A DNA stretch of 47,766 nucleotides. Origin: a virus. Taxonomy: Duplodnaviria; Heunggongvirae; Uroviricota; Caudoviricetes. Where the stretch lies: positions 1 to 47,766 of IMG/VR virus record IMGVR_UViG_2541047895_000008; one strand, given 5' to 3'. The position numbers were made by a program, and so were the translations under genes. Positions within the stretch are counted from its first letter, which is position 1. Every line of letters begins with the position of its first letter. The notes under the pieces are model-generated. The model ran no database searches. It was not told the origin of the DNA and was given only the letters and a program-made list of their open reading frames with translations. Below are positions 10,576-32,018 of this stretch, piece after piece.

Positions 10576-11274
10576 TTACTGCGAAAGTTTGTTAATGGAA
10601 AGGAAACCGCCAAAATTAGCCACCATGCCGCGCATCTCACACCCGCGCATGCACTTGCTGCATCTGTCCTTACGGATATCCGTGGTGGGGTTGTCGAACT
10701 CATCCGCCACCGCAGGACCGTTATACCCGCATTCATCTCCCCGGTAATCCCACATACAGGTGTTCGCCAGCATGATGCGACCGGGAAACAGCGCTCCGTC
10801 CGTCTCCGTCGGTGTTGCCAGCACAAACGAGGCTGTCATGGCCGTCAGCTCTGACATCTGCTCCACCACCCAGCGGTCGCTCAGCTCCTGCTCCGGGTCC
10901 GCTTCCGGATTGCCCGCCACAAAATTCACCGCATCCAGAAAACGGGCATACACCCGGCGGCGGACCACCGTGGCCCCCACCAGGCTCTGCAGGTCCTCCG
11001 CCATTCCGGTGACCAGACCGAACAGATTCGACACCGTCAGCGACGGGCGGGCACTGCTGCCCTTCCCGTTCATCTCAAAGCCACTGCCGTCAATCGGGTA
11101 TGCCTGATATTGCCGCCCCTGCCAGGTAACCGCCTCCCCTTTTTCATTCAGCTCATTGCAGAAAAAATACCGCTCACCACCCTGTACCGTCAGGTCGATT
11201 TCCCAGAGTACCACCCGCGGTGACTGCTCTGATTTAACCGACTCGTTCAGACTTTCTTCGTGAATATCCTGCAT
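10576..11274 (-). CDS. L: Minor tail protein L
   Basis: Lambda gpL-like sequence and gene order. Confidence 0.85.
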   Translation of the reverse strand: MQDIHEESLNESVKSEQSPRVVLWEIDLTVQGGERYFFCNELNEKGEAVTWQGRQYQAYPIDGSGFEMNGKGSSARPSLTVSNLFGLVTGMAEDLQSLVGATVVRRRVYARFLDAVNFVAGNPEADPEQELSDRWVVEQMSELTAMTASFVLATPTETDGALFPGRIMLANTCMWDYRGDECGYNGPAVADEFDNPTTDIRKDRCSKCMRGCEMRGMVANFGGFLSINKLSQ

Positions 11275-11603
11275 CAGTTCACCACCTGCTTAAACTCCGC
11301 GCTGAATTCAACCCGCAGCATGCGAACCCGTGATGACCAGGCGGCACAGGTCACCTTTATCTGCCGCCAGGCATAAGGCGGTGTCCACAGAAACGCCTTC
11401 CAGCCACCGTGCTCTGCCAGGAATGCCTCCAGATGTCGGGCCTCCTCCCGGGTCACGGAAAGCGTCACACGGTATGTTTTCAGGTCAGCATTCAGCCCCG
11501 CCGCCATACGCTGCGAATACCCGTCACCAAAACGCACTTCACGCACCGATGGCTGCGAGTTCACCTCCATATCCGGCTTCACTTTCCAGCGAAATGTTTT
11601 CAT
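11274..11603 (-). CDS. M: Minor tail protein M
   Basis: MKTFRWKVKP...RVEFSAEFKQVVN close to lambda gpM. Confidence 0.85.
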   Translation of the reverse strand: MKTFRWKVKPDMEVNSQPSVREVRFGDGYSQRMAAGLNADLKTYRVTLSVTREEARHLEAFLAEHGGWKAFLWTPPYAWRQIKVTCAAWSSRVRMLRVEFSAEFKQVVN

Positions 11604-14179
11604 CGCCTGCCTCCGGAAAAGACGCCGCCATCACGCATCTGCGCCTGAATCTCATCCTGCGCCCCCTTGCGGGCCATGTCATACACCGCTTTCATCAGCT
11701 GCGGCCCTGCCTGTCCGTTGATACCGTCGTTCTGAATCACCACGTGATTGTTCTGATTAAAACTAATGCCTTCCGCCCGCCGCATCTGCGCCGGACTTCC
11801 GGCACCGCCCACATAACCACCTTCCGCATACCCGCGCATCAGACGATACAGGTTGCCGACGCCAATCCGGCTGGTTGCCTCCTTCGTGAAGACAAACTCC
11901 CCGCGGTGGACAATACCGGCAGGTTCGTATTTGCCCCCCGTTCCCGTAAATCCCCCGGTCGCGAAATGGAAGTTCGCCGCCGCAGCCTGAATGGCCGTCC
12001 CCGTGGAGGCAGACGCCCCACCACCGAAAGCACCACCCATGGCGCTGCCAATACTCCCGACAATCCCCACCATGGCCTGCTTCAGAAAAATCTCTGTCAG
12101 CATGGAGAGCACAGAACGGGTGAAACCACGCCAGTTCTGTTCGCTGCCGGTCAGCATCGCTGCCATATTCTGTGCAATACCGTCAAAGGTCTGCGTGGCC
12201 ACGCTTTTAACCTGCGAAAAACTGTCCGTCGCACTTTCTGCCCACTCGCCCCAGCCGGACTTCAGACCGGCCATCCAGCTTCCACGAAGCTGCTCCTCCG
12301 CAGACCAGGTGTTCTTCAGTGCAGATGTGGCCTTCGCCAGCGCATCCGGATTATCACCGTACACGTCACGAAGGCGCTGCTCTTCCGACTCCCGCTGCGC
12401 CTGACGGTCGGTGAGTCCGCGGGCTTTTGCGCTGATTGCCGCCTGCTTCGCACTCTGCTGCTGTTCAAACCGCGCAGCCTGCTGTGCCAGCTCATTCAGC
12501 CGTTTCTGGTGTTCAACTTTGTCTCCCAGCTCAGCCAGCTGGCGTTTGTACTCCAGCGTCTCTTTCTCATGGGTCAGCAGGGATTTTTCCTGCTCAGATA
12601 ACTGCCGTTTCGTGGCTGCCTCTTTCAGGACCGCATACTGATTTTCCGCTTTCCATAAATCGCGACGCTGCTGGCTGATTTTCTCATTCGCACCGCTGTG
12701 TTTTTCCAGCGTCCGGAGCTCGGTTTCAAGCGCCAGCAGGGCAGCATGCGCCTGGTCTTCCTGACGCTCACCGGCTGACACTTTGACTCCTGACGACTTC
12801 GGCTTTTTCAGCGTCGATTCATAATCCTTTTTCGCCGCCGCCATCAGCGTGTTGTAATCCGCCTGCAGGATTTTCCCGTCTTTCAGGGCCTTATTCAGTT
12901 CTTCCTGACGGGCGGTATATTTCTCCAGCGGCGTCAGCAGACGCTCATACGCCTTCTGCGCCTCTCCGGTATACTTCAGCTGTGATGCGTCCCGTTCGGC
13001 CCGGTCCCTGGCGGCCAGTTCACCGGCTTTTTCCATATCCGACTGCAGCGTGGCCGCTGCCAGCCCCAGACGGGCATTTTCCCGGTCATTCCATGCGCCC
13101 TGAAGGTTGGCCCGGAAAGAGGCGGTTTTTCCCCGGCGCTGGCTCCGGCTCTGGTACCACTGCCATTTTTTATCCGCCTCATCAAATGCCTTCTGTGCAC
13201 TGGCGAGCATATCCGCTGAGGACTCAGGACGACCGATATCCAGAATGGCATCCCACATCGATTTGAATGCCTTCCCTGTTTTATCCGCCCAGGTCTCCAG
13301 TGTTCCCATGTTTTCTTTCAGGCGACGGGTCTGCTCATCAAAGCCTTTCGTGGCGATATCGTTCGCCGCCTGCAATGCCCCGGCCTCGTCTCCGGAACGC
13401 TGCAGCTGTGCAACATACGCAATCTGCTCTGCCGTCACGTTACGGAACTGGCGCGCCATCGCCATCAGTCCCGACGTCGGGTCGGTGGTCAGTTTTCCGA
13501 AAGCCTCTGCAACCTTGTCCACCTCCACACCGGATGCAGAAGCAAAACGCGCGACACTCTGGTTGATGGCATCAAACTGTTCACCACCACGCACACCGGC
13601 ATTCACCAGGGCTGCCAGTGACTCACTCGCCTGGTTAAACGTCAGCCCTGCGGCCTGTCCGGCTCTGGAGAGCGTCAGCATGCGATCGGCAGTCAGTCCG
13701 GACTGATTACCGGAAAGAACCAGGGTTTTATTAAACGCTGAAAGCGTGGAATCCCCCTGGTACCAGGCGTACGCCAGCGCACCTGTCGCCACCGCCAGCG
13801 AGGTGACCCCGACCATCGGCAGGGTGATCGCACCGGCAAGTCCCCTGAACATGGGGATCATCCCGCCGAAGGAGTCCTTCACCTGACCGCCCTGTTGCAG
13901 CAGGATCAGCCAGGGATTCTGACCACCGGCAAGCTGCGTGGCGATATCCGTAAACTGTGCGGGCAGGGTTCGCATGGCCGCTTTATACTGCCCGACGGAA
14001 ATCCCGGCTTTTTGTGCAGCCAGCGCCTGGCGGCTCAGGCCCTGTTCAACAGCACTGGCGGTTTTTCTGGCGTCGGTATCCAGACCTGAAAAATGACGCC
14101 TTACCCGGCTCATCTGCTCATCGAAACGGACCGCATCCAGACTCAGGTCAATAACAAGATCACCAACCGGCTGGGACAT
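11600..14179 (-). CDS. H: Tail tape measure protein H
   Basis: 859 aa, MSQPVGDLVIDLSLDAVRFDEQMSRVRRHF... collinear with lambda gpH. Confidence 0.9.
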   Translation of the reverse strand: MSQPVGDLVIDLSLDAVRFDEQMSRVRRHFSGLDTDARKTASAVEQGLSRQALAAQKAGISVGQYKAAMRTLPAQFTDIATQLAGGQNPWLILLQQGGQVKDSFGGMIPMFRGLAGAITLPMVGVTSLAVATGALAYAWYQGDSTLSAFNKTLVLSGNQSGLTADRMLTLSRAGQAAGLTFNQASESLAALVNAGVRGGEQFDAINQSVARFASASGVEVDKVAEAFGKLTTDPTSGLMAMARQFRNVTAEQIAYVAQLQRSGDEAGALQAANDIATKGFDEQTRRLKENMGTLETWADKTGKAFKSMWDAILDIGRPESSADMLASAQKAFDEADKKWQWYQSRSQRRGKTASFRANLQGAWNDRENARLGLAAATLQSDMEKAGELAARDRAERDASQLKYTGEAQKAYERLLTPLEKYTARQEELNKALKDGKILQADYNTLMAAAKKDYESTLKKPKSSGVKVSAGERQEDQAHAALLALETELRTLEKHSGANEKISQQRRDLWKAENQYAVLKEAATKRQLSEQEKSLLTHEKETLEYKRQLAELGDKVEHQKRLNELAQQAARFEQQQSAKQAAISAKARGLTDRQAQRESEEQRLRDVYGDNPDALAKATSALKNTWSAEEQLRGSWMAGLKSGWGEWAESATDSFSQVKSVATQTFDGIAQNMAAMLTGSEQNWRGFTRSVLSMLTEIFLKQAMVGIVGSIGSAMGGAFGGGASASTGTAIQAAAANFHFATGGFTGTGGKYEPAGIVHRGEFVFTKEATSRIGVGNLYRLMRGYAEGGYVGGAGSPAQMRRAEGISFNQNNHVVIQNDGINGQAGPQLMKAVYDMARKGAQDEIQAQMRDGGVFSGGRR

Positions 14180-15031
14180 ATCTCACACCTCCCGGAATCC
14201 CCGCTGAAGCCATCATTAATGCGGCATCATCCACCATGACATCCGCCACATCCGCAGACGATAAAATATCGCGCCCTCCGTCCCCACCGAACCGGACGCC
14301 TCCGGCAAGTCCTGCCGCTTTCTGCATCAGCATTTTGTCCTCATCCGGCCTCTCCACCTGCTCTTCCTCATGCCGGGGGACAAGCAGACTGAAATCAGAG
14401 GGATGCATATTCGGATCGCAAAAAAACAGGCTGAGTACAGCGTACGTCAGCCCGGAAAAATGCATATCCAGTTGGGTATCGAGAAAATAATGCGTACGGT
14501 AAAAATGTCGCCAGTCGGCATATTCGGTGGATGTCATCCCGGCAAGCATGGCGCGCCAGTCAGGCCTCCCCATCTCACGCGCCAGTCTGAGGGCAAAATT
14601 CAGCTCGCCGTCGAAGACTTTCCCGCAGAAAAATCATCATCAGTCAGCGCGTTATTTTTCGCCACTTCGGTGCTGTCAGTATCCGCATGAACAGCCCCGC
14701 TCATCCCGGACAGACGCAACACCACATCTTCCGCCCGGGCAATGGCATCCGCAGGCCAGGTGGTGAGCACCTCCTGTTCGATCTGCATCACAGCCTCATT
14801 CATTGACGGTGATGCCGTTTTCTGCGGATGGTTATGCCACAGGGACATCGCCACCAGAAACGCGCCGGTTCTGACGAGATCTTCCACGCTTACCTGCAGG
14901 TTGCCGCTGGATTCTGCCTGTTCTGCACGCCGTTTCAGGAGGGCAAGATGCTCAATACGCTGCAGCGCAGACAATTCGGAAAGCGTGACGGACACACCGT
15001 TATATTCAAATTGTTCTGTTTTCAGAAACAT
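14160..15031 (-). CDS. G-T: Tail assembly chaperone G-T fusion made by programmed -1 frameshift
   Basis: T-frame ORF 14160..14573 (lambda gpT-like) overlaps the end of G; slippery heptamer GGGAAAG lies 26 nt before the G stop. Confidence 0.75.
14600..15031 (-). CDS. G: Tail assembly chaperone G
   Basis: MFLKTEQFEYNGVSVTLSELSALQRIEHLAL... close to lambda gpG. Confidence 0.85.
   Translation of the reverse strand: MFLKTEQFEYNGVSVTLSELSALQRIEHLALLKRRAEQAESSGNLQVSVEDLVRTGAFLVAMSLWHNHPQKTASPSMNEAVMQIEQEVLTTWPADAIARAEDVVLRLSGMSGAVHADTDSTEVAKNNALTDDDFSAGKSSTAS
14628..14634 (-). other. -1 ribosomal frameshift slippery site (GGGAAAG) for the G-T fusion
   Basis: Read directly; after a -1 slip the frame continues into MGRPDWRAMLAG... 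(gpT-like). Confidence 0.7.
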
Positions 15032-15044
15032 GTATTACCTCCGT

Positions 15045-15797
15045 TTACCCTGCAGCGCCCGCTTCAGTAACGGTGACTTCAGCCACTGCGGCGAACTGAC
15101 CATTTCCGCTCACCACAGGGATCTGCACCTTACCTGTCGCCACGCCGTTTACCGTAATTGTCATATCTTTCACACTAATGGTGGCTTTCGACGGATCGGC
15201 GGAAACCGCTCTGAACGTCTTGTCGGTTGCACTTTCCGGCTCAAAAGAAACCGTCAGGGTGGTTGTTTTCCCTTTTGCCACCGTACCGGATGTCGGCGTC
15301 ACCTTAATCGCAGTGACCGGCGTAATTTTGCTGCGTTCTTCCGCTACAGAAGGTTTGCCCACGTTGGTCACTTTCACCGTGCGGGTGATCACTTCTTTCG
15401 CCGTCACGGCCTTACCGATACTGCTGACCCAGCCACGAAACACATCCACCGTGCCGTTCGGAAAACGGATTTTATAGGCCCGCACATCCCCGCTTTCAAA
15501 CCAGCCTATAAGCCCTTTCTGACCTTCTTCTCCCGGTTTCCAGGCCAGCGTAAAACTGGTATCTCCTGCAGACTTCTGCCCCTGCCCGGTCGCGGTCCAG
15601 TCCGCGTCTTCATCATCCAGGTAGTTATCATCGTAGGGTTCTGCCGTCATCTCGCCCGGCGTCAGATCCTTCACCTTAGCCAGTCGCAGCCAGTCATCGT
15701 CTGACAACGGGTTTGCATAGGCGTCACCCTGACCGTTATAAACCCACAGGGTGGTACCGGCACCTTTTACCGGCTCAAGGGGATTTGGTGTTGACAT
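15045..15797 (-). CDS. V: Major tail protein V
   Basis: Close to lambda gpV including the C-terminal Ig-like region. Confidence 0.9.
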
Positions 15798-15804
15798 ATC
15801 GTCC

Positions 15805-16200
15805 TCACATCTCGTATGTAATGGAATAAGTCAGATCCGCAGAACTCCATAACGCCATATCGTCATCACGACGATACTCATAGCCCTGCGTAACCATCGT
15901 GGTAATCAGGTCTGCCAGTGCCGGGATCGCAGTCATCGCCGGATAAATCCGGCTTTCCATCCACGAATCCAGCTCCGAATCCGGTACCTGTGCTGGTAAA
16001 AACACCTCAATATGCAGTGTGGCCCGCCAGGTATCTGCATCCAGCTCTTCACCGGTATACTCTGCATCCGTCAGATAAACCGCGACCGCGGGAAAATCCT
16101 CTTCGTCAAAAACAACGGGGCGACCATCAAACAGCGTCGCCCCGTGTTCATGCAGCTCCAGTGCATCCAGCACTGCAGCACGGATATCAGTATGTTTCAT
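15805..16200 (-). CDS. U: Tail terminator protein U
   Basis: [15 protein letters not shown]...ITYEM close to lambda gpU. Confidence 0.85.
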
Positions 16201-25379: not shown

Positions 25380-25694
25380 TTAGCATTTTTTTGACCGCGC
25401 GTTTCCGGACGTATTCTGTTCTCCTGTCCCTTTATATCGTCGGAATACCCGCCGCTCTTCAAATCCCATTCCCAACTCAGAATGTAGTCTGTTGACCGCT
25501 TGTTTTATTTCGGTCAGGTTCACCGGTGAAACCGGAGTCCGGCGCGCCTTACGCAAACACTCTGCTCGTTTCTGTGCCGCCACTTTTCTTTTCTGGTCAT
25601 CACTTAGCTGTACCATCACTTTTGCCCATCGTTCAGCTGCTCTCCGGTACAGTCCTTTTTTCTCCAGACATTCTGCCACGTGATCATGTAGCAT
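25380..25694 (-). CDS. PerC-family transcriptional activator homolog (Pch-like)
   Basis: MLHDHVAECLEKKGLYRRAAERWAKVMVQ... fits the PerC/Pch pattern; preceded by a long A-rich low-complexity tract. Confidence 0.6.
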   Translation of the reverse strand: MLHDHVAECLEKKGLYRRAAERWAKVMVQLSDDQKRKVAAQKRAECLRKARRTPVSPVNLTEIKQAVNRLHSELGMGFEERRVFRRYKGTGEQNTSGNARSKKC

Positions 25695-26159: not shown

Positions 26160-26627
26160 TCACGGTATACACTGGGTACGGATATATTCCTGTGCTCCTT
26201 CCAGTTGCTTCTGCATTGCCATCAGCCGTTCTCTGAGGATGAAATAATCCCGTTCAGCGGTGTCTGCCAGTCGGGGGCCGGTTGCATTATCCACGCCGGA
26301 GGTGCCGGTGGCTTCACGCACGGTACCGGAGCAGGTGGCGTTGATCCGCAGGCGCTTACGACCAGCGGCAACATCAGCACGCAGAGTTTCATTTTCAGCT
26401 CTCGCATCGGCTAATTCCCTCGAGTATCTGGCATCAAGTGCAGCGACATCACGCTGGCGTATCTGCATATCAGTAATTGTCGCGTTCGCCAGCTCCAGCT
26501 CACTGGCTTTTTTATCGCGCTGCTCTTTGTAGATGATGGCGTGATCACGGTAATGATTCAGCCCCAGACTAAGCGCACCACAGGCCACCAGCAGGACAAT
26601 GATAACCACGCACAGAACACGGTTCAT
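26160..26627 (-). CDS. Rz: Spanin inner-membrane subunit Rz
   Basis: N-terminal TM segment (MNRVLCVVIIVLLVACGAL) then coiled-coil periplasmic domain; contains the embedded Rz1 frame. Confidence 0.8.
   Translation of the reverse strand: MNRVLCVVIIVLLVACGALSLGLNHYRDHAIIYKEQRDKKASELELANATITDMQIRQRDVAALDARYSRELADARAENETLRADVAAGRKRLRINATCSGTVREATGTSGVDNATGPRLADTAERDYFILRERLMAMQKQLEGAQEYIRTQCIP
26222..26392 (-). CDS. Rz1: Spanin outer-membrane lipoprotein Rz1 (embedded in Rz, +1 frame)
   Basis: MKLCVLMLPLVVSAC lipobox then Pro-rich ..PPAPVPCVKPPAPPAWIMQP.. Confidence 0.75.
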   Translation of the reverse strand: MKLCVLMLPLVVSACGSTPPAPVPCVKPPAPPAWIMQPAPDWQTPLNGIISSSENG

Positions 26628-26962
26628 ATCACCACCAACGGATTGCCCAGACCAGAACAGCAATGGCCACAATACGAATGGCAAAAGCTGCCGCTCTTGT
26701 TAAATCCAGACTGGCTGGCGTCTCCACTTCAATGCCTTTCATAATGGACAACCTCAGAAAGAATCTTTTATACTTCCTCACAGGGAAAGTACCTCCCTAC
26801 CCATAATTTCTCCCTTGCCTTACTCAAGGTCAGAAAACACAAAACCCCGCTTGCTGCCAACAAACGGGGTTTTTACTTTTATTCACTTAGGTTTTACCAG
26901 TTTTCAGGATTTCGTGTTATCCACCCGCGTTGGCCAACGTCATTTTTCAGGAAAATATTCTG

Positions 26963-27496
26963 CTATCTGTCGATGTCCCAGCACGCCAGCGCGCTCTCCT
27001 GGTCACGCCGTGAGACCTGACCGTAGCAATTATTTGAACGGATACGGCAGTCTCTGCCACCGTCCTTAATCCACCAGCGAATCGCCTCACAGGCACCTTT
27101 TCGATCGCCTGCATTAATTCGTTTATAAAACGTCGACGGGAAGCACTTACCGGGGCCAATGTTGTACGGACAGAATGACGCGATCCCCGCTTTCTGGGGT
27201 TCGGTCAGCGGCACCCGGATGTTTTTCTCCACCCATGCCAGCGCCTTGTCACGTTCGATGGCATTAACCCGGTCGCATTTTTCCTTTGACAGCTTCATGC
27301 CAGGAATAACAGGCTTACCATCCACCAGAATGGCACCACGGCAGATGGTCCAGATCCCCGCACCATCACGGTATGCCGTGGTGTGGTTACCTTCCTTTTC
27401 ATCCAGAAACTGGTCGAGGATTTCAGGCGCAGAAGCACCTGCACCAATCAGCGCCAGAACGGCAGCCGACAGGCCGTATTTTATTTTTTCGTTCAT
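26963..27496 (-). CDS. R: SAR-type endolysin (phage lysozyme)
   Basis: Gly/Ala-rich weakly hydrophobic N-terminus (YGLSAAVLALIGAGASA) followed by a lysozyme-like domain; paired with the pinholin. Confidence 0.75.
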   Translation of the reverse strand: MNEKIKYGLSAAVLALIGAGASAPEILDQFLDEKEGNHTTAYRDGAGIWTICRGAILVDGKPVIPGMKLSKEKCDRVNAIERDKALAWVEKNIRVPLTEPQKAGIASFCPYNIGPGKCFPSTFYKRINAGDRKGACEAIRWWIKDGGRDCRIRSNNCYGQVSRRDQESALACWDIDR

Positions 27497-27613
27497 GGGG
27501 ATTTATCGATTTCTAATCCCTTGATATGTTAGGTATATAATCCAACACTCATGGTCGCTCTCATAAACATATCCCTTGAGACGCAGCAGATTACAACAAA
27601 TGAAGCCATATAA

Positions 27614-27928
27614 ATGAACAGTAAAGAAAGTTTGCGCAGAAGATTTTTACAACTAATGACAGAAAACGTTAAATCAGAGTTACTTCTTCTGATGGCAGAT
27701 AATAACGAAGCAACAAGCAGCATTCTTGCAGACCCTTACGGTAAGATCTCACATAAAACGCTGGATATTATTACCACAACATTAACACCGCTGATGCTTC
27801 AACGGCTGAAACATAATATCAACGCATGGGTTAATGAAGAATTAAGTCCTCCCTGCTTATGGGATTCTCGTTACGCATGTCAGCAAAAAATGCGAATTTT
27901 CAACTTACTATCACCAAAGCTCAGGTAG
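27614..27928 (+). CDS. Hypothetical 104-aa protein in an AT-rich insert between holin and endolysin (moron candidate)
   Basis: Only sizeable ORF in the ~690-bp S-R spacer; opposite strand to the late operon; noticeably AT-rich. No family recognised. Confidence 0.4.
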   Translation: MNSKESLRRRFLQLMTENVKSELLLLMADNNEATSSILADPYGKISHKTLDIITTTLTPLMLQRLKHNINAWVNEELSPPCLWDSRYACQQKMRIFNLLSPKLR

Positions 27929-28183
27929 CCATAAAATCCTGCCCTTCATGGCATACAGGATTTCAATGGAATCACAATGACCAACTCTTGCACAGCTGTA
28001 TCCCTGACTCCCCGACAACTCAGATTTTCAGTATCTGCTGCTATCTAAAGAGAAAGCGCACAAATGCAAGGGTCTTTCATCACGTCCTGTTATTGATTGC
28101 CTGTGACCTTTTCTTACCTCATGGAACGTTTTTTCAGTTAGAAATATTCATTTTACAACCAGTTCGTATTGTTTATTCATCGA

Positions 28184-28390
28184 CTACTCTCCCCGCGCCA
28201 CCTTACGCTTATCTTCTTTAATCTTGAAATAAAGGTTAGTCAGATACGTCAGCAGGCCAAACAGCAGACTCCCCAGCACACCGATTGCCACCCACTGGGA
28301 CGGAGAGACTTTGTCCAGCAGCTGCAGTAACCAGTATCCCGTCCCCACCGCTGACGTGGTGTATGACACACCCGTTGTGATTTTTTCCAT
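28184..28390 (-). CDS. S: Holin, phage 21 S-type pinholin
   Basis: [63 protein letters not shown].. matches the S21-like pinholin. Confidence 0.85.
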
Positions 28391-28837
28391 CTGATGTATG
28401 TCTCCGTCACCGCCGACAGAAAATGAAAGTAAAGAAAAACAAAAAAACCGCCAGTGTCACCCACTGACGGCCAACTCCGGGAGCCGTGATTATGGCATTC
28501 AGGCTCTGCTAAAAATGCCAGATAACATTCCGGCCTCCCCTGATTCAGGTTATAAATGACACAATATCTTGACAACACCCGTCACTGTCTGTCAGAAAAT
28601 ATACCGCCAGGCATAAGTATCATGTGAAATCCAACTATCCTTCTGAGCCAGCACCTCTCCACCGAAAGTCAGTGCTGGCTGTTTTTTTCCTTAATAAAGC
28701 ATCTGTAACTGAAACAATCCGCATATTGATAATATATTGACAGGCATCATTGCTGTCTGTGAAAAATAAGTCTCTACAAACATATAAGGCCTTTTAGCCA
28801 GCGTCTTCTTTTTGGTGTCTCTCGCGGGCTTTTTTTA

Positions 28838-30688
28838 TTATGCTGCCGGTGCATTTATCTCCAGCACCAGACTTTCTATCTCAACGCCATACGCTGCATT
28901 TTTTGTAACATCCGTCAGCGTCAGCGCATTCAGTCCCAGTGTCAGACCGTCTTTTATAACCTGGAATGCCGGGCCAGCCACTCCATTCAGTTTCGGAGTA
29001 ACCGTGGCACTGCCGGCGGTGAACACCAGCTCCAGCGTCTGCCAGTCGTTACCGTAATCGCCGAACTCCCCCAGCTTCGTGTTTCCGGCTTTCCTGTGAT
29101 GCATCAGATTCACTCTGCCGTCAGTGGTCTGAGTGAAGTACGACATCAGGAACGGATTACCGGTACCCGTCATCGCCACACCATCAGGAACGGGAGCATC
29201 CGTATACAGATAAATCCCCAGCCCGAACTGATTGTTGGTCAGTGCGCCTGACAGGCGGAACTTACAGGTCAGTCTGCCGCCCTGTGTCAGCAGGGTAATT
29301 GCGTCATCCACCGGATGCGTCAGGGACCAGGTTTTATTGCTCTGCTTGGTGATCTTAAATACACCATCTGACAACTGAATTCCGCCATCCTTAATGCTCC
29401 AGCCCTGCGCAGCAGCCTCTCCGGCTGCCGGCAGCAGGGAGATTGTGCGAACGGACGTATCTGCAGACGGACCCGATGGCGTGTTGCCGCCGGGCGAGGG
29501 TTTGATTTCCGGTGCCTTACCACTGATGAAGGCTGAGGTGCGCCCGGCTGCGTTCAGAATAGCGGTTGCCAGACGATCCGGAATAATGCTCCTGCGCGCC
29601 CATGAACTGAAATGTGTCGGGCGGTTTGATGATACCTGGTTTCCATTCGTTCTCGATGCCGCACCGTAATATCCTGATGCCGGAATATCCGGATCTTCTG
29701 CCGGCGCGTTAGTGGCGGTATTGACGCCGTTACCGTCTGTCATGAAGGGCACAAAATAAACGCCCTCACTCTCCCTGTTTTTATACCCGCCGTACACGGT
29801 GTCGTATTGGGTAGCGTATGTATTTTTCCAGTAATACGTCGTGTCACCACAAATCCACGGCACATCTGCAGCGCTGCCACCATGGCACTGCGCGTTAAAC
29901 ACGGAGAGGTCAGCACGAAACTGTGTCAGCATGGCTGTAAACAGCGCAGGTTGCTGTGCGTGGGTGGCGGCGCTCATGTCAAACTCACCCTGCATCCAGC
30001 AGACGGCCAGCAGAACGTTTTTGGGATTTTTCTGCAATGCCGCTTTTGTGCGGGAAATCAGATCCTGATATAACGGCTTGCCCCCCCCCCAGCGTGCCGA
30101 ATCCTGACTGGCCCCCGTGGACTCGCTGAATGTCCCCTCCGCGCCCTGGGTAAATGCCGAACCACCACGACAGCATGGTACCAGCAGGATCCCCGCGTTA
30201 TTCGGGATATACGGGAGCAGTTTTTTGGCAATATGTAAACCCTGGCCGACACAGCCGTACTGCCCTTTGCTCAGGTCAGCCCTCGGATGATTCAGCGTAC
30301 TCATATCCTGCACATCATGCAGACAGTGGTCAGCCGGAATAATATCGTTATATCTGCAGGCAGCCCCGCCCGGCGTCACTGTACTGCGGCGCGCCAGCTG
30401 TTTAATGCGCGGATCCGGAGCATCGTATGAATCCGGCAGCGGAAGCCCTTCACCGTAAGCCATGGCATTGGACTGCCCGGCCAGTACGATGACGTAGTAC
30501 CAATCCGGCTCAGATGAAGGGCCGACCTGTGGCTCTCCTTCAATAGCCACCGCCTGCATCAGTGTGTACGGCGTAATGGCAACCGGTCCGCCGTATGGCT
30601 GCCAGCCCTCTTTCAGTTTGTGTGTCAGCTTTTCCGCAAGGTCTGACGGCGACGCCGCCCTGACAACATCATAATGTTTAATCGACAT
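28838..30688 (-). CDS. nanS-p: NanS-p-like sialate O-acetylesterase (DUF1737 plus SASA domain)
   Basis: MSIKHYDVVRAASPSDLAEKLTHKLKEGWQPYGG.. (DUF1737) then esterase domain; sits between the stx-equivalent position and the holin as in Stx phages. Contains a G10 tract. Confidence 0.8.
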   Translation of the reverse strand: MSIKHYDVVRAASPSDLAEKLTHKLKEGWQPYGGPVAITPYTLMQAVAIEGEPQVGPSSEPDWYYVIVLAGQSNAMAYGEGLPLPDSYDAPDPRIKQLARRSTVTPGGAACRYNDIIPADHCLHDVQDMSTLNHPRADLSKGQYGCVGQGLHIAKKLLPYIPNNAGILLVPCCRGGSAFTQGAEGTFSESTGASQDSARWGGGKPLYQDLISRTKAALQKNPKNVLLAVCWMQGEFDMSAATHAQQPALFTAMLTQFRADLSVFNAQCHGGSAADVPWICGDTTYYWKNTYATQYDTVYGGYKNRESEGVYFVPFMTDGNGVNTATNAPAEDPDIPASGYYGAASRTNGNQVSSNRPTHFSSWARRSIIPDRLATAILNAAGRTSAFISGKAPEIKPSPGGNTPSGPSADTSVRTISLLPAAGEAAAQGWSIKDGGIQLSDGVFKITKQSNKTWSLTHPVDDAITLLTQGGRLTCKFRLSGALTNNQFGLGIYLYTDAPVPDGVAMTGTGNPFLMSYFTQTTDGRVNLMHHRKAGNTKLGEFGDYGNDWQTLELVFTAGSATVTPKLNGVAGPAFQVIKDGLTLGLNALTLTDVTKNAAYGVEIESLVLEINAPAA

Positions 30689-31166
30689 CGAATTTCTCCC
30701 GTGTAGAGGAACAGAGTTAAAAAGCCGGAAGCGGAATCAAATCACAGGATGACCATCTGCCAGTGGCTGGTCGTAAAAAAAAGGCCGCGCCATGCGCAGC
30801 CGAAAATAAAGGGATAACGATGATAGTTTGAGAAAAACAGAAATAACACTTTTGTGGCAAAGCATGGTGCCGGGTGCCTCCCGGTGAATTCAGTATCAGC
30901 ACCTGAATCCGCGATTACCCCATATTCCTTCTTGCTGATTGCCCCACCGCACAGGGGGATTCACCATGCAGAAGTGTTTTTAATAAACAGCAAACAAAAA
31001 AATCAAGCATTATGCAGGCTGTTTCTTTTTATCACCGGCCACAGCAATACCATAATGCCGCAGACCAGCACCCCATCCGCCAGCACCGACATGATTCTGC
31101 TGGTGAAATCCACCATCACCACCAGAAACAGCAGGAGTGCAGCCACAGTCAGGCGCAGTTTTACCG

Positions 31167-31768: not shown

Positions 31769-31845
31769 TGGTGCGTTGTACTGGGTTCGAACCAGTGACC
31801 GATTGCTTAGAAGGCAATTGCTCTGTCCGGCTGAGCTAAAAACGC
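31769..31845 (-). tRNA. argO: tRNA-Arg (anticodon UCU)
   Basis: Cloverleaf GCGUUUUUAGCUCAG...CCUUCUAAGCA...GGUUCGAACC...ACGCACCA; third of the phage tRNA trio. Confidence 0.8.
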
Positions 31846-31858
31846 AGAATACCGATAA

Positions 31859-31935
31859 TGGACCGCCATCGGAGACTCGAACCCCGCGAAACCAGCTTCG
31901 AAGGCTGGCGTTCTATCCCGATGAGCTAATGGCGG
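31859..31935 (-). tRNA. argN: tRNA-Arg (anticodon UCG)
   Basis: Acceptor stem CCGCCAU/AUGGCGG, anticodon loop CUUCGAA, T-arm GGGGUUCGAGUCUCCG, 3' UCCA. Confidence 0.7.
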
Positions 31936-31942
31936 TATGTGA

Positions 31943-32018
31943 TGGTGGCCCTTGCTGGATTTGAACCAGCGGCCTGGCGATTATGAGTCGCTCGCTCTCA
32001 CCACTGAGCTAAAGGGCC
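31943..32018 (-). tRNA. ileZ: tRNA-Ile2/Met-like (anticodon CAU)
   Basis: GGCCCUUUAGCUCAGUGGU..GACUCAUAAUCGC..GGUUCAAAUCC..GGGCCACCA, close to the ileX-type tRNA. Confidence 0.8.

Follow-up and report, generated by a model that had tools for sequence, protein, structure and literature searches.

Organization of the interval between the holin and lysozyme genes

The window, i.e. the whole stretch of 47,766 nucleotides analysed here, contains an E. coli lambdoid prophage with its late genes on the minus strand. Its lysis region comprises an S21-type class II holin gene (S), an rrrQ-type lysozyme gene (R, named rrrQ by RefSeq in identical copies) and the genes for Rz and Rz1, and a SASA/NanS-p-type esterase gene precedes the holin gene (Table 1). 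The preliminary description of this DNA had pointed to an AT-rich block of about 690 bp which splits S and R and carries a plus-strand ORF of 104 codons, antisense to the late operon. Both statements hold: the block measures 687 bp with a GC content of 0.39, against 0.52-0.54 in the flanking genes (R 0.543, S 0.522; whole window 0.512), and the ORF, here called gene B, is present. Within the gap the GC content is low throughout (leader of B 0.376, B ORF 0.384, remainder 0.404). The AT skew likewise agrees, as it is positive (+0.12 to +0.21) across 27500-27900 and negative in the flanking minus-strand genes, a change of sign that fits a switch of the coding strand at the gap.

Two further ORFs in the gap (120 aa on the plus and 64 aa on the minus strand) gave no family match in Pfam, NCBIfam and PADLOC scans, and scanning the interval with the Rfam covariance models returned no matches at E <= 1.

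Table 1. Features of the lysis region and its surroundings (coordinates of the window).
Feature	Position	Strand	Remarks and evidence
PerC-family transcriptional regulator (Pch-like)	25380-25694	-	104 aa
Rz	26160-26684	-	
Rz1	26222-26407	-	
Lysozyme R, rrrQ-type	26963-27496	-	177 aa; Pfam PF00959 Phage_lysozyme, E 7.6e-24
S-R interval	27497-28183		687 bp; GC 0.39; holin stop to lysozyme start
Leader of B (divergent B-R intergenic region)	27497-27613	+	117 bp; sequence and alignment of homologous loci
Candidate sigma-70 promoter for B	27502-27530	+	TTTATC 27502-27507, 17-nt spacer, TATGTT 27525-27530
Candidate alternative -10 for B	27536-27541	+	TATAAT; no good -35 upstream
Weak Shine-Dalgarno-like sequence	27601-27605	+	TGAAG
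Gene B	27614-27928	+	104 aa; PHROG 1853; profile match, conserved length, dN/dS
Remnant of A C-domain (probable)	27976-28107	-	in-frame stops; tblastn
Remnant of A start	28148-28180	-	MNKQYELVVK, then stop; begins 3 nt past holin stop
Holin S, S21-type class II	28184-28390	-	68 aa; Pfam PF04971 Phage_holin_2_1, E 1.9e-32
Terminator-like hairpin	28446-28472	-	GGCCGTCAGTGGGTGACACTGGCGG, then seven T; 56 nt upstream of holin start
Esterase, SASA/NanS-p-type	28838-30688	-	
STnc100 sRNA (RF02076)	30826-30998	-	100.8 bits, gathering score 47
tRNA genes (at least three)	31772-32000+	-	

Some further features of the window deserve mention. Upstream of the esterase gene a match to the STnc100 sRNA scores well above the gathering threshold, and judging from its position it probably represents a short late leader transcript proximal to pR'. 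The tRNA genes lie upstream of the esterase gene as well and are annotated by RefSeq as Ile, Arg and Arg in an identical prophage. Stx-like late regions typically have such tRNA clusters; the window itself lacks an stx gene. Between Rz and the terminase genes a Pch-like regulator of the PerC family is encoded; in EHEC, PerC homologues from prophages control the LEE island.

Gene B and its predicted product

Because an ORF of at least 104 codons arises by chance in 96 of 5,000 shuffled versions of the block (1.9%), the length of B is in itself suggestive at most, and we count B as a real gene on account of its conservation and its dN/dS. The homology search which had been recommended for the 104-aa protein led to a family and to no Pfam or NCBIfam domain: B matches the PHROG 1853 HMM with an E-value of 3.5e-47 and 161 bits, residues 1-102 corresponding to positions 57-158 of the 159 in the profile. 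B is thus a member of this family, the function of which is unknown. The family is small: a word-indexed search of 5.8 billion proteins gave 16 clusters, and an exhaustive profile search of 1.84 billion proteins gave 20 representatives at 50% identity. Its divergent members P0033, P0023 and P0019 found no matches when used as queries against genome and viral contig collections. Full-length homologues comprise 104-107 aa, a length which stays constant down to 21% identity, and truncated variants (P0026, P0032) occur in the clade of phage 86. Codon comparisons with homologues of 64-78% protein identity gave dN/dS values of 0.14-0.19 at dS 0.6-1.7. Judged by these measures of conservation, B is a real, conserved and selectively maintained protein-coding gene.

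B is already annotated as hypothetical in RefSeq, in EDL933 and in PHROGs. RefSeq places the start later, which results in a protein of 90 aa (27656-27928, WP_000138558.1), while the original annotation of EDL933 has the 104-aa form, identical to B, as "unknown protein encoded within prophage CP-933O". The 14 additional N-terminal residues are kept in all full-length homologues, those from Salmonella included, and this common N-terminus favours the start at 27614 over that of RefSeq at 27656.

The AlphaFold2 model of B is a five-helix bundle (pLDDT 84.7, pTM 0.74), and B is predicted to be a soluble protein of this fold without recognised relative. No transmembrane segment was found, the highest 19-residue Kyte-Doolittle mean being 0.66, and the lack of a hydrophobic segment argues against a role in the membrane. 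The isoelectric points of the homologues range from 4.6 to 9.3, which argues against a conserved nucleic-acid-binding surface. B has no match in Pfam, NCBIfam or PADLOC, and at E <= 0.1 none of the defence models of PADLOC-DB 2.0 matches B or four A proteins (see below). With respect to lysis proteins, B shows neither a transmembrane segment nor a SAR domain nor a lipoprotein signal. Nor does it conform to a type II toxin-antitoxin system, as A and B are convergent and match no known toxin-antitoxin family, and A also occurs without B.

Gene A and its remnant in the window

The usual neighbour of B homologues is a late-strand gene, here called A, which encodes proteins of 184-321 aa (PHROG 1085). 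In full-length A proteins a coiled-coil linker joins a DUF1327-like N-domain to a conserved C-domain, which spans about 105 aa and has the motifs LGRCMGLLQVAAEIE, DFDNPPFK and W.SPGV.YLK. The structure model of A is of low confidence (pLDDT 60) and gave no informative fold match, and Pfam, NCBIfam and PADLOC scans of the A proteins found nothing except DUF1327 in gp05 of phage 86.

Two pieces of such a gene can be recognized in the window. The start remnant next to S shares 75-92% identity with residues 1-12 of phage 86 gp05, the DUF1327 protein of PhiR12 and YdfR of WGPS2, and on the DNA level 28145-28183 match the same three loci by 87-95%. As its frame ends after 10 codons it cannot be assigned to the DUF1327/YdfR family as a member and has to be seen as a pseudogene remnant. 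The second piece aligns with residues 143-186 of 12E129_290 (36% identity, 59% positives over 44 aa), with a tblastn E-value of 5e-5 that refers to a small target of 901 nt. Because the DNA of 27937-28144 does not match intact A genes, this piece is graded only as probable: 27976-28107 is probably a degenerate part of the A C-domain. On the basis of these alignments we regard 27929-28183 as the decayed remnant of a late-strand gene A of the DUF1327/YdfR family. Since this part is a decayed A, and B is the usual neighbour of A, the S-R block reads as a dead late-strand gene A together with an intact opposite-strand gene B, and not as a single foreign insert.

The same site in related lysis cassettes

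It had been assumed at the outset that S and R are normally adjacent, and that the block was one insert, an assumption to be given up if related phages had a conserved late-strand gene at this site. Adjacency is true for DLP12 of K-12, where essD and rrrD are neighbours, but fails for cassettes of the essQ/rrrQ type: the order in the K-12 prophage Qin is essQ-ydfR-rrrQ, and ydfR also lies there in Stx phages. Among the 30 phage records that match the S and R ends of the window best (Stx and lambdoid phages), all 30 have a late-strand YdfR/DUF1327 gene between S and R, sometimes with further genes. A conserved late-strand gene thus does occupy the site, and the view of a single insert had to be dropped. 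Two of the properties of a moron are found as well, namely extra DNA (687 bp in the window compared with the adjacent essD and rrrD of DLP12) and a deviating base composition (GC 0.39 against 0.52-0.54). The S-R interval is therefore the occupied state of a known variable accessory-gene ("moron") slot, not an unusual disruption.

A second opposite-strand ORF, of 86 aa, was found at the same site in PhiR12_1 (L002, 3209-3469, plus strand) and also in phage 2H10 and in PhiR63_1. In PhiR12_1 it adjoins R and is convergent with the DUF1327 gene, which it overlaps by 53 nt. A remote relationship of this ORF to B was considered and rejected (hhalign probability 0.2%), and its label as 'DUF1823' is below threshold. 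The slot next to R may thus be a recurrent host of small antisense genes. In the Stx2a phage Stx2_95 (L025, 1865-2854) an intact A of 329 aa lies between S and R without a B; it has the DUF1327 domain, the coiled coil and the C-domain, and ends up 36 bp from R.

Pairing and distribution of A and B

Every B homologue with a readable context is arranged tail-to-tail with a late-strand A, nearly always an intact one and in the lysis region; the 3' ends of the two genes range from an overlap of 33 nt to a distance of 21 nt. Two orders can be distinguished. In E. coli it is S-A-B-R (phage 86, Stx2_12E129, L007, L010, L011, L012), and in Salmonella and some metagenomic contigs Q...A-B-S-R (L017, L019, L021-L023, L013-L015). 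In the Salmonella prophages L019, L020, L022 and L017 a HicA/HicB toxin-antitoxin pair lies directly upstream, between Q and A, so that the Q-S interval of Salmonella stacks several accessory modules.

All four combinations of the two genes exist: both in phage 86, Stx2_12E129 and the Salmonella loci, B without an intact A in the window type, in L006 (frameshifted A) and in L009 (a fragment), A alone in Stx2_95, and neither in DLP12. Of 5,426 complete E. coli genomes, about 626 (about 11.5%) carry the window-type block with dead A and intact B, in up to three copies each, and 623 of 632 records of the block are at least 99% identical. Carriers include O157:H7, O55:H7, O145, O111, O103 and commensal strains, and no deposited phage genome has the block. 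Intact A and B together were found in about 95 genomes as the phage-86 type and in about 15 as the L010 type. Searching 50,697 phage records, we found the A C-domain in five and B in four, all of which are among these five. The phage-86-type module (B and the A C-domain) is also present, 100% identical, in O104:H4 strain FDAARGOS_349 (NZ_CP027394.1, 865569-866301).

Two copies lie in altered surroundings. L009 (3447-4323) is a prophage fragment with a partial lysozyme gene and an intact B, the dN/dS of which is 0.14 in comparison to L010. About 600 bp downstream of it a SPATE-type serine-protease autotransporter is encoded (4916-7024) on a contig rich in IS66 and IS110; a link of B to virulence genes was considered for this neighbourhood and rejected, as there is only a prophage fragment in an IS-rich region. 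In O157:H7 SS52 (L018, around 8000-16000) the lysis segment with the block has the reverse orientation to the remainder of the prophage and is bracketed by IS1203 and ISEc8, and this copy sits in a rearranged, probably defective prophage.

In the literature on ydfR/essQ/rrrQ, DUF1327, WP_000138558, CP-933O and P13374 we found no study of B. The conserved arrangement of A and B and the selection on B in lineages that lost A appear to be undescribed in the searchable literature.

Selection on B in the lineage without A

All 687 bp recur colinearly in E. coli M18, at 94.2% identity and with the same remnant architecture of A, which allows the parts of the block to be compared after the loss of A. 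The leader differs at 12 of 117 positions (10.3%), the remnant of A at 19 of 255 (7.5%), and B at 9 of 315 (2.9%). Six of the changes in B are synonymous and three nonsynonymous (pS 0.091, pN 0.012, ratio 0.13). Relative to the non-coding sites, changes at nonsynonymous sites of B are depleted (p = 9e-5) and those at synonymous sites are alike (p = 0.81). By this comparison B is under purifying selection in the lineage with a dead A. A pN/pS of 0.13 after the death of A argues that B retained a function on the protein level, which would be either independent of A or exerted on A-type proteins supplied in trans.

Expression signals around B

The 117-bp leader of B, which separates it from the divergent R, contains two promoter candidates. 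The TTTATC/TATGTT pair is conserved in both E. coli clades, and its counterpart in L010, TTTACA-17-TATGTT, passes the promoter scan; the candidates of the window itself stay below the threshold of the consensus scan. L009 and L007 share the TATAAT, for which L010 has TACAAT. The window and M18 differ at 12 positions of the leader, all of them outside the promoter hexamers, though this is not statistically significant. Downstream of B no plus-strand terminator was found in the window.

No consensus RNA structure was found in the B leader of the window clade. A GC hairpin is conserved in the B leader of phage 86, 12E129 and the Salmonella loci and absent from the window; it has one covarying pair (CG to UG to UA). 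A terminator-like hairpin upstream of the holin gene of the window has the same stem, CGYCAGTG/CACTGGCG, as this leader hairpin (L004 3893-3922, L017 3928-3955, L015 918-946).

A model for B and alternative explanations

We propose that the S-R interval of the window holds a dead A and an autonomously transcribed moron gene B which would be expressed in the lysogen, silenced late and act by binding a protein, possibly A; as a whole we give this model a slightly better than even chance. B would have a sigma-70-type promoter of its own between B and R and be read against the direction of the late operon; it would accordingly be made in the lysogen, while the late transcripts from pR' stop upstream. 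After induction, Q-antiterminated late transcription would switch B off, both through collision and through antisense pairing. The promoter, the expression in the lysogen and the switch-off by late transcription are, in our opinion, reasonably likely. The product, a protein of about 12 kDa with the predicted five-helix bundle, would bind a protein rather than DNA or the membrane. Its likeliest target would be the C-domain of A-type late proteins, originally encoded in cis and, in the version with a dead A, supplied in trans by co-resident or incoming lambdoid phages.

This choice of target is speculative, and we consider it doubtful. Stx2_95 has an intact A without B, B is far more common alone (about 626 genomes) than together with A (about 95 and 15), and in three pairs A and B carry net charges of like sign, not complementary ones. 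The identities of A and B are correlated (r = 0.80), as is expected from linkage alone, and the association of the genes could be a simple co-inheritance of neighbours.

If A were harmful when expressed leakily and B neutralised it in the lysogen, the two would form a pair of late effector and antidote, and the B of the window would be an orphan antidote, retained because of the A of other prophages or incoming phages and acting in late-stage exclusion or protection. The pairing of A and B over a deep divergence and in two insertion contexts would agree with this, as would at least three independent losses of A with B kept (the window type, the frameshift in L006, the fragment in L009), the purifying selection on B in the orphan lineage, and at least one genome (SJ3) which has an orphan B and an A C-domain elsewhere. 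Such a pair is nevertheless unlikely, as the genes are convergent and form no operon, neither of them matches a toxin-antitoxin, defence or toxin family, A persists without B in Stx2_95, B is truncated in P0026 and P0032 of the phage-86 clade, and the model of A is of low confidence (pLDDT 60) and yields no informative fold match. A broader version, in which A and B make up a hitherto unknown two-gene module in the lysis region of enterobacterial lambdoid prophages, with a convergent, lysogen-expressed B that binds the late protein A and an orphan B that neutralises the A of rival phages, finds equally little credence with us; if it were true, the orphan B in about 11.5% of E. coli genomes, O157:H7 included, would be a factor of late-stage exclusion or immunity.

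A different explanation is that transcription and not the protein matters, the plus-strand promoter tuning A, R and the downstream late operon by interference or by duplexes sensitive to RNase III. At all loci B is indeed head-on to the late operon, A and B meet or overlap at their 3' ends so that no terminator fits between them, and the window has no plus-strand terminator behind B. What makes this explanation very unlikely is the strong purifying selection on the amino-acid sequence: the synonymous sites change at the rate of the non-coding flanks, which identifies the protein as the selected product of B. In addition, neither the leader nor the downstream remnant is conserved in the orphan lineage, and the interval is devoid of Rfam matches.

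The constant location of B in the lysis region, divergent from R in E. coli or from S in Salmonella, could also point to a regulator of lysis in the lytic phase, for example of holin or endolysin timing, expressed lytically in spite of its orientation. We hold this to be improbable, because B lies on the strand opposite to that served by the sole known late promoter, differs from holins, antiholins and spanins in having no transmembrane segment, signal peptide or lipobox, and is missing from most related cassettes, which work without it. Finally, a chance open frame or a decaying relic without function, which the frequency of such ORFs in the shuffles, the lack of a recognised domain and the death of the neighbouring A might suggest, is effectively excluded by the selection evidence, with dN/dS of 0.13-0.19 in several comparisons including the A-dead lineage, besides a length and N-terminus conserved between E. 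coli and Salmonella and a confident structure prediction.

Significance and comparison with known systems

An identical B is present in about one ninth of the complete E. coli genomes, among them O157:H7, O55:H7, O145, O111 and O103, and the Stx2a prophage type of the O104:H4 outbreak lineage has both A and B intact. If B is expressed in lysogens as our model has it, it could affect spontaneous induction, the timing of lysis and toxin release, or the interference between co-resident lambdoid prophages, and such effects would matter for the release of Shiga toxin and for competition among prophages in EHEC. On the present evidence B is one more uncharacterised moron in a slot known to vary.

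Orphan antitoxin and immunity genes resemble B in being small proteins kept under selection after the decay of their partner. They differ in that B has no operon and no kinship to toxin-antitoxin systems in sequence or fold, and in that its partner A can exist without it.

The lambdoid moron is the concept nearest to B, and lambda bor and lom are reportedly typical examples. Like B, they are extra DNA of lower GC content between genes that are adjacent in relatives, within the lysis cassette or beside it, and bor shares with B the orientation opposite to the late operon. Bor is expressed from the prophage; B has a candidate promoter of its own. The products of bor and lom are exported envelope proteins with phenotypes, whereas B is predicted to be cytoplasmic and takes part in a conserved two-gene arrangement.

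The ydfR gene of Qin and the YdfR genes of Stx phages occupy the same slot, and 10 codons from the start of such a gene are left in the window. YdfR, a late-strand product, comprises no more than the N-domain; the B of the window is encoded on the other strand and has no sequence relationship to it.

The nearest known counterpart of B itself is gp06 of phage 86, also found in Stx2_12E129 and in O104:H4, which has 104 aa as well, is 53% identical and lies at the same site and in the same orientation beside R. Both genes of phage 86 are annotated as hypothetical. Phage 86 differs from the window in its B leader, which has the GC hairpin, and in its late-strand partner: gp05 is intact, with 268 aa, the DUF1327 N-domain and the C-domain, whereas in the window a remnant of such a gene survives.
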